Source: a virus
Direction: 5' to 3' (one strand)
DNA length: 64,000 nucleotides
IMG/VR virus record: IMGVR_UViG_3300027963_004416
Span: 1 to 64,000 of that record
Shown: in pieces, positions 20,066 through 23,460 of the stretch
Numbering within the stretch: the first letter of the stretch is position 1
How the letters are laid out: every line of letters begins with the position of its first letter
Translations under genes and position numbers: made by a program
Notes under the pieces: generated by a model
Told to the model about the DNA's origin: nothing
The model's database searches: none
The model's input: the letters and a program-made list of their open reading frames with translations, nothing else

Positions 20066-20159
20066 CCTCCTGTAGTTTAATGGTAAAACACCCGGCTTAT
20101 ACCCGGCATTGGCTCTAGATGGGGGCACGTTACAGGTTCGAATCCTGTCGGGAGGACCA
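20066..20159 (+). tRNA. tRNA-Ile(UAU) with long variable arm
   Basis: Acceptor CCTCCTG/CGGGAGG, loop CT-TAT-AC, TTCGAAT T-loop, CCA; about 23-nt extra arm. Confidence 0.75.
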
Positions 20160-20167
20160 GATTAATT

Positions 20168-20250
20168 GCCCAGGTGGTGGAATTGGTAGACACGCTGGTC
20201 TTAGAAGCCAGTGCTTCGGCGTAAGAGTTCGAGTCTCTTCTTGGGCACCA
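20168..20250 (+). tRNA. tRNA-Leu(UAG)
   Basis: Cloverleaf, CT-TAG-AA loop, V-arm, CCA. Confidence 0.92.
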
Positions 20251-20256
20251 ATTTAT

Positions 20257-20346
20257 GGAAGTGTGGCAGCCCGGTTTATTGCAACAGTCTTGAAAACTGT
20301 CGTGCCAGCGATGGCACCGTGAGTTCGAATCTCACCGCTTCCGCCA
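20257..20346 (+). tRNA. tRNA-Ser(UGA)
   Basis: CT-TGA-AA loop, long V-arm, GCCA end. Confidence 0.92.
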
Positions 20347-20347
20347 A

Positions 20348-20421
20348 CCCGGTGTAGTTTAATGGCAGAACCGCAGCCTCCAAATCTGCATGTGGGAGTT
20401 CGATTCTCTCCACCGGGTCCA
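20348..20421 (+). tRNA. tRNA-Trp(CCA)
   Basis: CT-CCA-AA loop, CCCGGTG/CACCGGG acceptor; atypical U73 and 31:39 mismatch. Confidence 0.8.
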
Positions 20422-20423
20422 AG

Positions 20424-20451
20424 TTGACTTATATTCAATAAGCAGTATAAT
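20424..20451 (+). promoter_or_regulatory. Sigma70-type promoter inside tRNA array
   Basis: TTGACT-N16-TATAAT. Confidence 0.7.
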
Positions 20452-20459
20452 GTACGTAT

Positions 20460-20533
20460 AGCGGGATAGTGAAATGGCATCACACAGGTCTCATAAGCCT
20501 GAGTTCTTAGTTCGAATCTAGGTCCCGCAACCA
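20460..20533 (+). tRNA. tRNA-Met(CAU), initiator-like
   Basis: CT-CAT-AA loop; 1:72 A-A mismatch. Confidence 0.8.
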
Positions 20534-20539
20534 GTTTAT

Positions 20540-20615
20540 TCTCCGATAGCTCAGTCGGTAGAGCAACGGACTGTTAATCCGTGTGTCCCTGGTTCGAGCC
20601 CAGGTCGGGGAGCCA
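20540..20615 (+). tRNA. tRNA-Asn(GUU)
   Basis: CT-GTT-AA loop, GCCA end. Confidence 0.93.
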
Positions 20616-20621
20616 AGTCTT

Positions 20622-20697
20622 GCCCTGTTAGCTCATTTGGTAGAGCAACGCACTTGTAATGCGTAGGTGGTCAGTTCGAATCCGACACAGGGCACCA
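20622..20697 (+). tRNA. tRNA-Thr(UGU)
   Basis: CT-TGT-AA loop, CCA. Confidence 0.93.
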
Positions 20698-20704
20698 GTT
20701 TTCT

Positions 20705-20777
20705 GCGAGTGTGGCGCAGTTGGTAGCGCAACGGACTTTTAATCCGCTGGTCGCGAGTTCGAGTCTCGCCACTCGTA
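20705..20777 (+). tRNA. tRNA-Lys(UUU)
   Basis: CT-TTT-AA loop; followed by CAA, not CCA. Confidence 0.88.
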
Positions 20778-20784
20778 CAAGTTT

Positions 20785-20861
20785 CTCGGCGTAGTTCAGT
20801 CTGGTAGAATGCCTGCTTTGGGAGCAGGAGGTCGCAGGTTCGAACCCTGCCGCCGAGACCA
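20785..20861 (+). tRNA. tRNA-Pro(UGG)
   Basis: TT-TGG-GA loop, CCA. Confidence 0.92.
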
Positions 20862-20865
20862 AAAT

Positions 20866-20941
20866 AGGAGGTTAGCTCAGTTGGTAGAGCGTCACGCTTA
20901 CACCGTGAATGTGATCGGTTCGAACCCGGTACCTCCTACCA
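20866..20941 (+). tRNA. tRNA-Val(UAC)
   Basis: CT-TAC-AC loop, CCA. Confidence 0.92.
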
Positions 20942-20944
20942 AAC

Positions 20945-21410
20945 CCCCGTGTCTCCTTGGGTTTAGGAGAGGTGTGAGTTTGTGTTATGCCACAGCACTA
21001 TTGGCCAAATAGTGTCCAGAACTCTCAGGTGCCTAGTTCCACCATATGACTAGCGATTCTTAAAGATCGAATACTTTAAGCGTTATCGTCGAAGCGTTAT
21101 TAGACGTGGTCGGAGTAACCTCCCGGTCAAGTGGTTCCCCGGTAAGGAATGGCTTGACACCTATAACAGTCCTTCTGATGAGTCTTTAGGAGACGATAAC
21201 AGTAGCGCGTACAGCGAAATGGCGAGCCCTTCTTATAGGCCGTACCCAGAGTAGTCGTTACTGTCAAGGACCCGCCCCATACCTTTCGGTGTATTGGGTG
21301 CGAAGCGAAAGCTAGGGACGAAAGGGTGTATAAGTGTAGGAGCGGTCTAGAACGCGAACTGCAACCTGAGTAGCGTAACCGATTATTTTTCGTAGCAAGA
21401 GCCTACGACT
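20945..21410 (+). ncRNA. Candidate large structured ncRNA downstream of the tRNA array
   Basis: No credible ORF, GC-richer than flanks, about 10 local hairpins plus long-range helix CTCAGGT(21024)/ACCTGAG(21364); boundaries approximate. Confidence 0.7.
21169..21271 (+). ncRNA. Hammerhead ribozyme (type I topology, core with one extra U)
   Basis: Stem I GTCCTT/AAGGAC, CTGATGA, stem II GTCT/AGAC, GA(T)A, stem III ACAGTAGCG/CGTTACTGT, GUC cleavage triplet ending at C21265. Confidence 0.7.
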
Positions 21411-21515: not shown

Positions 21516-22298
21516 TTATTGATTTGCACTACTATTATTAGTAGAATCCATTTCATCTTTTGCCTCTGTCCAATAAACTATTTCCCATAATCCATCATGG
21601 TGTTCAACTAGCGCAGAGCAGCTCTCAACCCAATCACCGGTATTCATATATGTAACACCGTTAATAGTTTTAATTTCCGGTGTATGAATATGACCACATA
21701 TTATTCCGTCAAAATTTCTTTTAGCAGCATAGCTAGTTACATTTAATTCAAATTTAAATACAAAATCTACTGCTTTTTTTACTTTATGCTTTAAAAATCT
21801 AGATAAACTCCAATATCCAAATCCTAACTTATGACGCCACCAATTAAATTTAGTGTTGAGCCATAAAACACAATCATAAGCTTTATCGCCCAGGAATGAT
21901 AGCCATGGAGCTAATCTAGTTATTCCGTCGAACATATCTCCGTGAACTATTAAATACTTCTCCCCGTTTATTGATCTGTATTCTGCAGAGTTTACTATGT
22001 TAATGTTACCGAGTGAGAAGGAACCGACATATGGTCTTAAGAACTCATCATGGTTCCCAGTAACATAAGTAATCGAGGTGTTATCTCTGCTTAGTTTAAG
22101 GATTCTTCTAATAAAGGCGGAATGACTTTTTTTCCAATGCCATTTTTTTTGTTGAATTCTCCAGCCATCGATGATATCACCCACTAGAAATAAATTCTCA
22201 CAGGTATTATACTTTAAAAAGTTGGCAGCTAAATCAGCTCTGCTGTCTTTAGTTCCAAGATGTACATCAGAAATAAAAATGGATTTGTATTTTGTCAT
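21516..22298 (-). CDS. Calcineurin-like metallophosphoesterase (LpxH / UDP-2,3-diacylglucosamine hydrolase-like)
   Basis: SDVHLG, GDIID, GNHD, HGD, CGHIH, NTGDWVE. Confidence 0.85.
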   Translation of the reverse strand: MTKYKSIFISDVHLGTKDSRADLAANFLKYNTCENLFLVGDIIDGWRIQQKKWHWKKSHSAFIRRILKLSRDNTSITYVTGNHDEFLRPYVGSFSLGNINIVNSAEYRSINGEKYLIVHGDMFDGITRLAPWLSFLGDKAYDCVLWLNTKFNWWRHKLGFGYWSLSRFLKHKVKKAVDFVFKFELNVTSYAAKRNFDGIICGHIHTPEIKTINGVTYMNTGDWVESCSALVEHHDGLWEIVYWTEAKDEMDSTNNSSANQ

Positions 22299-22321: not shown

Positions 22322-22358
22322 GTTGATATCTTTTCACGAGTAGGATATAATAAATCAT

Positions 22359-22989: not shown

Positions 22990-23460
22990 ATGCTAAAAAT
23001 AGATATTAATGAAGTAAAAGAGTTTATCGAAGCACAAGGCCCTAGCACAAAAATTTATATTGGTGGCGACTCTGAAAGATTCATTAATAACAATATTTGG
23101 TATGCTGATTACACACTCGCAATAGTAGTACACATTGACGGAAGACATGGTTGCAAGCTCTTTGGCGAAGTTCAAAGAGAACGCGATTATGATCAAAGCA
23201 AGAACCGCCCAAGAATGCGGCTAATGAATGAAGTATATAAAGTTGCAGAGCTGTATTTAAAACTACAAGAAGTTCTAGAAGATAGAGATGTTGAAGTTCA
23301 TCTAGATATTAATCCAAGTGATCTTCACGGTTCGAGTTGTATTATTAACGAGGCAGTAGGATATATTAAGGGCATGTGCAATGTTACACCCCTTATTAAG
23401 CCTCAAGCGTTTGCAGCGAGTTATGCTGCTGATAGGATTAAAGAAGTATTGGCTGCCTAG
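22990..23460 (+). CDS. RNase H-like YkuK (DUF458) family protein
   Basis: IYIGGDS, RLMNEV, EVHLDIN, AASYAAD. Confidence 0.8.
   Translation: MLKIDINEVKEFIEAQGPSTKIYIGGDSERFINNNIWYADYTLAIVVHIDGRHGCKLFGEVQRERDYDQSKNRPRMRLMNEVYKVAELYLKLQEVLEDRDVEVHLDINPSDLHGSSCIINEAVGYIKGMCNVTPLIKPQAFAASYAADRIKEVLAA

Follow-up and report, generated by a model that had tools for sequence, protein, structure and literature searches.

What lies behind the tRNA genes of a T4-like phage when the array gives way to a GC-rich stretch without reading frames, and could a self-cleaving ribozyme end the transcript there? The locus that raises this question belongs to a DNA stretch of 64,000 nucleotides (the window), which opens an IMG/VR contig (145.7 kb in length) from a T4-like phage and encodes the sliding clamp, the clamp loader, gp62 and RegA; the DNA runs containing the phage are freshwater and lake metagenomes. 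Its plus strand carries an array of 10 tRNA genes (20066-20941), and the ORF-free stretch after the array has a G+C content of about 50% versus about 36% around it. A preliminary description of this DNA, made from the letters alone, placed a variant hammerhead ribozyme in that stretch and stated that self-cleaving ribozymes occur beside phage tRNA genes and that hammerhead core variants exist in nature. The literature bears out both points, with theta ribozymes in phage tRNA clusters (PMC10879173) and a recorded U13a insertion (PMC3088659), respectively. Here, we ask whether the motif is a hammerhead, whether it may still cleave, and which task it might have at the end of a tRNA operon.

Anatomy of the motif

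Re-reading the window returned the coordinates and letters of the motif as first given: between 21169 and 21271 of the plus strand, all hammerhead core nucleotides are found in order, along with three helices of 6, 4-5 and 9 bp. Stem I is made of GUCCUU (21169-21174), which is invariant in 7 haplotypes, and AAGGAC (21266-21271). The strand CUGAUGA (21175-21181) supplies C3 to A9, with U21179 as N7, and is followed by stem II with its loop (21182-21194), in which GUCU(U) at 21182-85/86 pairs with (G)AGAC at 21190/91-94, including the G10.1-C11.1 pair, around the loop UUAGG; the stem is invariant and the loop has a U to C change in the relative L278. G12, A13, U13a and A14 occupy 21195-21198, so that the GAAA strand carries one inserted U at 21197, and the extra U (GAUAA) noted in the preliminary description is indeed present. 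Stem III begins with A15.1 in its 5' strand ACAGUAGCG (21199-21207) and ends with U16.1 in its 3' strand CGUUACUGU (21256-21264), the A15.1-U16.1 pair being A21199-U21264, and the non-G residue 17 is C21265 (GUC); pair and residue are invariant in 7 haplotypes. Cleavage is predicted at 21265/21266, a site placed from the hammerhead consensus. With stem I open and stems II and III closed, 21169-21271 probably represents a hammerhead of type-I topology, and that it is a real hammerhead-class ribozyme motif we consider very likely.

The two strands of stem III are capped by an extension of 48 nt (21208-21255) with two conserved blocks and a variable distal hairpin. This insert had been called branched, a term that did not survive folding, as the predicted structure is an irregular hairpin with an internal loop. 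The blocks CGAAAUGG and CCAnAGUAGU face each other, and both are kept in L278 while 18 of the 48 positions differ. We infer that the facing blocks resemble the AGUA/GAA loop-E (bulged-G) motif, which suggests a docking or protein-binding arm.

To describe the motif formally, a type-I descriptor was written (CUGANGA, stem II, GAAA with or without one inserted base, stem III from A-U, a non-G residue and stem I), and its sole match on both strands of the 64-kb window was this site. No match was obtained with stems of at least 5/4/5 in 150 dinucleotide-preserving shuffles of the window, or at 5/4/5 when the 444-nt element was shuffled 20,000 times, and very lax stems of 4/3/4 gave 14 matches in 150 dinucleotide-preserving window shuffles. 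The descriptor found no further hammerhead in 2.56 Mb of related phage loci.

At gathering score, Rfam reported no hammerhead in the window and no ribozyme in the window or the rest of the 145.7-kb genome, where only tRNAs and a permuted tmRNA were returned. The comparison with Infernal and the Rfam hammerhead models that had been proposed as a check gave partial matches, all of them sub-threshold. For the type III model RF00008, whose cut-off is 48.5 bits, the scores were 17.0 (window) and 21.7 (L278); the type I model RF00163, with a cut-off of 34, reached 15.1 bits in L278 and matched nowhere in the genome of the window. These matches extend from the 5' strand of stem I up to the start of stem III, and, with thresholds relaxed, the part of the window aligned to the type III model is limited to CUGAUGAG..CGAuAAC. 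The Rfam hammerhead models contain no long stem III insert, and the low scores are probably caused by the 48-nt stem III extension (66 nt between the stem III strands).

Relatives and conservation

In 50,697 phage records, 160 syntenic loci that surround regA and LpxH-like homologs, and five related contigs searched over their full length, blastn and nhmmer found no match to the element. Relatives were retrieved by exact matching of 20-mer seeds that avoid the catalytic core, in the case of L278 with a seed outside the hammerhead. The module is present in the IMG/VR contigs L165/L166, L167 and L278, in the JGI metagenome contigs L247 and L248, and in the further assemblies L317-L329, which were found through neighbouring proteins. 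Homology starts directly after the CCA of a tRNA (tRNA-Val; tRNA-Pro in L278) and ends at about 21382, past which the neighbours differ: a convergent LpxH-like gene in the window, L318 and L322, a 52-aa ORF in the L165 type, a promoter and tRNA-Arg in L167, and a convergent HExxH ORF in L278. The LpxH-like metallophosphatase gene (window 21516-22298, minus strand, convergent to the tRNA unit) is an insertion restricted to the window, L318 and L322 haplotypes and absent from the other relatives. When viral contigs were scanned for further U13a hammerheads sharing this stem II (CTGANGAGTC..GACGATAA), all matches were chance or coding ones, and with the stem III insert as seed (CGAAATGG..CCANAGTAGT) only the known contigs and chance matches came up. 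In 185,579 prokaryote genomes, scanned twice, there were 0 matches, and one metagenome scan yielded near-identical copies only.

Among the close haplotypes (L165, L167 and a variant in run X2 matching L322), the 134-nt block 21160-21293 shows two substitutions in all, U21179 to C, which is N7, and C21206 to U, by which one C-G pair of stem III becomes U.G; in contrast, the 5' domain upstream has 17 substitutions (L165 and L167), and 21294-21382 has more than 30 as well as indels. L278 is far more informative, as it differs from the window at 25 positions of the 103-nt motif (24% divergence) with none of the 12 core positions, none of the 12 stem I positions and none of the 8 stem II positions changed. 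The differences fall on N7 (1/1), loop II (1/5), the insert (18/48) and stem III (4/16), and all those in stem III preserve pairing (G.U to G-C, C-G to U-A, G-C to G.U). The swap from C-G to U-A has its U.G intermediate in L165, and across haplotypes pair 8 is C-G, U.G or U-A, pair 7 is G.U or G-C, and pair 9 is G-C or G.U. Stem III thus holds one compensatory and two wobble-compatible pairs, and stems I and II are invariant and hence uninformative, so that covariation is limited to stem III and comes from essentially one divergent lineage. Counted over 7 haplotypes, 98% of cells are paired, versus 31-44% when the partners are slid.

The core of L278 is fully canonical (CUGACGA ... GAAA ... 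GUC), and its lineage has the exact GAAA in place of the window's GAUAA. The extra U occurs in the window, L165, L167 and L322 types and is absent from L278, L326, L327, L328 and L329, which read GAAA. Conservation of the CUGAUGA/GUC core in homologs, which the preliminary description had made a test of its proposal, was found apart from N7, which is C in L322 and L278 (CUGACGA), and from C3, which is U only in L326/L328 (UUGACGA), two ENA assemblies. With this exception at C3, the core is kept in relatives, the GAAA strand is canonical in the L278 lineage and stem III covaries, all of which upholds the original assignment to the hammerhead class. L326/L328 are 99.94% identical to L278/L327 over 6.5 kb, the C3U change being among just 4 differences, and this allele, located at L326:3539-3708(-) and at the same coordinates in L328, shows that catalysis is not under absolute selection. 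For the GAAA region, Perreault et al. 2011 (PMC3088659) list a natural U13a insertion, which they judged likely to be accommodated, arguing that the residue could face outwards from the core with hardly any change to the structure. A natural hammerhead with U3 and G8 is known from a halophile phage, and in vivo ends were mapped near its site.

Predicted folds and flanking elements

In isolation, the minimum-energy fold of the 111-nt RNA is the exact hammerhead secondary structure (-29.4 kcal/mol), and the hammerhead is also the single-sequence minimum-energy fold of the L278 fragment. Unconstrained RNAalifold of 4 sequences, L278 included, predicts the hammerhead fold plus two hairpins behind stem I. 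In longer contexts, competitors that re-pair GUCCUU are favoured over the hammerhead fold by 0.3-2.2 kcal/mol. The alternative pairings named in the preliminary description, GUCCU with AGGGAC (21314-19) and ACACC with GGUGU, do exist and form part of the minimum-energy fold of a longer fragment; as conserved switch helices they fared poorly, the ACACC/GGUGU helix being broken in L165, L322 and L278. A long-range CUCAGGU/ACCUGAG helix from a companion note is destroyed in L278. Pairing of CGAAAGG with CCUUUCG was also considered and set aside, as it is not conserved among relatives.

Directly behind stem I lie two conserved hairpins, A (21273-21302) and B (21304-21313, with a GNRA-type loop in most haplotypes), the latter with an A-U to G-C change in L278. 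They are followed by AGGGAY-GAAA, a fast-evolving stretch and the conserved tail AGUAGCGYAACCG (21314-21382, plus strand). In the downstream RNA of approximately 117 nt, the first 48 nt, which comprise hairpins A and B, are conserved and the remainder is not; a search for a common fold of this 3' product beyond the two hairpins found none. Natural hammerheads rely on a pseudoknot in about 40% of cases, and some show no such contact. For the present motif, no tertiary contact between stem I and stem II was established. A possible 4-bp pseudoknot joins UAGG of loop II to CCUA at 21160-63, and the loop change from U to C in L278, which lacks compensation, weakens this pairing. Hairpins A and B are candidates for the tertiary contact of the hammerhead and, as modelled, may constitute a peripheral domain of the ribozyme.

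The upstream RNA and its genomic setting

The hammerhead starts 5 nt behind another structured RNA. This 5' domain (20942-21164, plus strand; about 222 nt) runs from right after the CCA of tRNA-Val to ...GACACCUAU, has about 50% GC against a background of 36% and contains no ORF. A covariance model built from it found homologs that lack the hammerhead directly behind tRNAs in other lake phages, with 90 bits in L193 (6908-7064) and weaker scores in L224 (6073-6194), L243 (563-719), L223 (489-584) and L187 (6348-6414). The family has 14 pairs with compensatory change, a number equalled in 0 of 500 shuffles, and shares the 3' signature GGACAGRGUAAC...GUCnnGG-hairpin-CCnnGACACC; no Rfam match was found for it. 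By this comparative evidence, the 5' domain is a separate, uncatalogued structured RNA family in the tRNA arrays of lake T4-like phages. In L224 and L243, a tRNA begins 3-11 nt after the ...ACACC end of the family, so that RNase P would release the ncRNA, and in the window's clade the hammerhead block stands in place of that tRNA, with variable DNA beyond. Lake metatranscriptome contigs from two assemblies cover 20903-21139; two runs stop at 21139 and none extends over 21140 onwards, but 21139/21140 is polymorphic and assembly graphs break there, which makes these contigs uninformative on RNA ends or hammerhead RNA.

The hammerhead strand is the transcribed strand of the tRNA operon, with which it is contiguous. 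A promoter-like site, TTGACT-16-TATAAT (20424-20451, plus strand), agrees with 11 of 12 consensus positions and, being a consensus match only, would drive the tRNA-Met to tRNA-Val genes, the ncRNA and the hammerhead. A second such site (22323-22351) precedes tRNA-Arg, and on the basis of both sites the module can be read as the tail of a six-tRNA unit. On these sequence data, the hammerhead and its two flanking hairpins are the most conserved block (21160-21313) of a non-coding module of about 440 nt that ends a predicted tRNA transcription unit.

Several other features of these phages deserve mention. The permuted tmRNA is of betaproteobacterial type (L249:12091-12445, equal to genome 76091-76445; RF04321 141 bits, RF01850 108 bits), which hints at a betaproteobacterial host. 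The tRNA-Ile(UAU) gene at window 20066-20159 is 94 nt in length with a long extra arm and is kept in L167, L168 and L247. A gene for a 156-aa RNaseH_like (PF04308) protein lies between tRNA genes at window 22990-23460 and occupies the same place in about 80 related phage arrays. Finally, the 21-tRNA array of a related phage holds a GC-rich (49%), ORF-free spacer of 269 nt (L108:11118-11386) that does not match the 5' domain model R1.

Discussion

With type I hammerheads of bacteria and phages (RF00163, in a clan with RF00008 and RF02275-7; PMC3088659), the motif shares the core C3U4G5A6N7G8A9 / G12A13A14 (with one U inserted after A13 in the window) / A15.1-U16.1 / C17, the G10.1-C11.1 pair, three helices and an open stem I, as well as a phage-borne, intergenic position on the sense strand of a polycistronic unit. 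Unlike them, it has a conserved 48-nt extension of stem III, with which all Rfam models stay below threshold, the residue U13a in the window's lineage, no identified loop-loop or pseudoknot contact, and a location behind an ncRNA inside a tRNA operon. The U13a variant of Perreault et al. 2011 (Figure 5, 'Core nucleotide variation'; PMC3088659) has the same single U between A13 and A14, whereas in the family described here some members lack it. HDV-like theta ribozymes (Kienbeck et al. 2024, PMC10879173) are likewise a small self-cleaving class in phage tRNA clusters, the cleavage of the present motif being a prediction. They belong to a different class whose cleavage site is the 5' end of the ribozyme itself, immediately after a tRNA, so that the cut makes the tRNA 3' end, while the cut predicted for our hammerhead is at its 3' end and a 222-nt RNA separates it from the tRNA. 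GOLLD and ROOL (RF01998, RF03087) occur in the same context, as large GC-rich ORF-free RNAs in phage tRNA regions, but their models did not match the module even at E<=10, and the module is a composite, with the hammerhead block between the 222-nt RNA of the family and a variable tail. Judged from its sequence, the motif gives a known ribozyme class a new architecture, and it sits in a setting for which the literature searched holds no description.

Could an ordinary three-way junction of a structured RNA have come to spell the hammerhead core by chance? Sub-threshold Rfam scores, the lax descriptor's 14 matches in 150 shuffled windows and the fact that about 250,000 windows were scanned, so that rare chance motifs are expected somewhere, could be cited in favour of this view. 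However, shuffles gave no match at realistic stringency, and the same 12 core letters occur in a lineage with 24% divergence, where the sole deviation reverts to the exact consensus. The retention of the core, the canonical GAAA and the pair-preserving stem III changes in L278 speak for a hammerhead by descent and exclude chance in our assessment, to which we assign next to no probability. The motif could also be a hammerhead by descent that no longer works in the window's lineage, U13a (and C3U in L326/L328) having crippled catalysis and the junction having been kept as a structural part, for instance as a scaffold presenting the loop-E-bearing arm. The U13a of the window, L165, L167 and L322 types as opposed to the canonical L278, the C3U polymorphism and the failure to find a tertiary contact are supportive of this idea, and the strong conservation of the stem III extension and of hairpins A and B, equal to that of the core, would suit a structural role. 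Yet lineages with differences at 25 of 103 positions agree at each of the 12 catalytic-core positions, the only CUGAUGA substitution in U13a lineages is at the free position N7, and both the published judgement that U13a is accommodable with minimal structural change (PMC3088659) and the halophile-phage hammerhead, with U3, G8 and in vivo ends near its site, argue against a crippled core. We therefore regard a loss of activity as unlikely and lean towards the view that the U13a form of the window is still self-cleaving.

Activity might instead be gated, as the preliminary description had envisaged, if the 5' strand of stem I alternated between AAGGAC in an active form and AGGGAC (21314-19) or a local hairpin GUCCUUCUGA/UUUAGGAGAC in an inactive one. 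Folding of the 176-nt and of the full-length RNA gives the alternative pairings as the minimum-energy solution, as does one alifold run, and AGGGAY-GAAA is conserved in every haplotype, L278 included. Nevertheless, the kept AGGGAY varies in its pairing with GUCCU by just a C/U change at 21319 opposite G21169, which is compatible with pairing and not diagnostic, the companion helix ACACC/GGUGU is lost in three of the relatives, the consensus fold with L278 is the hammerhead, with CCU/AGG closing the junction, and no ligand- or protein-binding element was identified. A switchable hammerhead hence seems improbable to us.

A role of the hammerhead in transcript punctuation is plausible. Transcription from 20424-20451 would yield an RNA with six tRNAs, the 222-nt ncRNA and, after them, the hammerhead, which would then fold and cut itself between C21265 and A21266. 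The upstream piece, consisting of ncRNA and ribozyme (about 324 nt after removal of the tRNAs), would receive a 2',3'-cyclic phosphate and the downstream piece a 5'-OH, and the cut would uncouple the tRNA/ncRNA transcript from the variable DNA downstream, be it a convergent gene, a small ORF or a new promoter. As the hammerhead block replaces a tRNA and the DNA beyond it is variable, we read the block as a possible device for severing the tRNA/ncRNA transcript from downstream sequence. Processing of the tRNA operon's 3' trailer, as put forward in the preliminary description, is harder to argue for, since RNase P and tRNA 3' processing require no ribozyme, and related tRNA arrays exist without one. 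A type-I hammerhead would stay on the upstream product, which fits poorly with a purely trimming function at the 3' end of the ncRNA, and, as the downstream RNA would get a clean 5'-OH, maturation of the RNA of about 117 nt could be an alternative purpose.

Here we speculate, with due hesitation, that the hammerhead is the punctuation mark of an undescribed ncRNA family of phage tRNA arrays. RNase P acting at the next tRNA would free the RNA in most members, and in the clade of the window, where that tRNA was lost, a ribozyme cassette composed of the hammerhead, the loop-E-bearing arm and the two hairpins might have taken over. If true, the locus would produce a two-piece RNA, or a small RNA with a 5'-OH and a function of its own.

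The natural 'mutants' at hand, with canonical core, U13a, C3U and U or C at N7, make the tolerance of the core to U13a directly testable, and the example shows that hammerheads with long stem III extensions are missed by curated covariance models. What hammerheads do for bacteria and phages is still poorly understood; the context is fixed here, at the end of a tRNA operon behind a covarying ncRNA, and the replacement of RNase P/tRNA punctuation by a ribozyme is an idea that can be put directly to the test.
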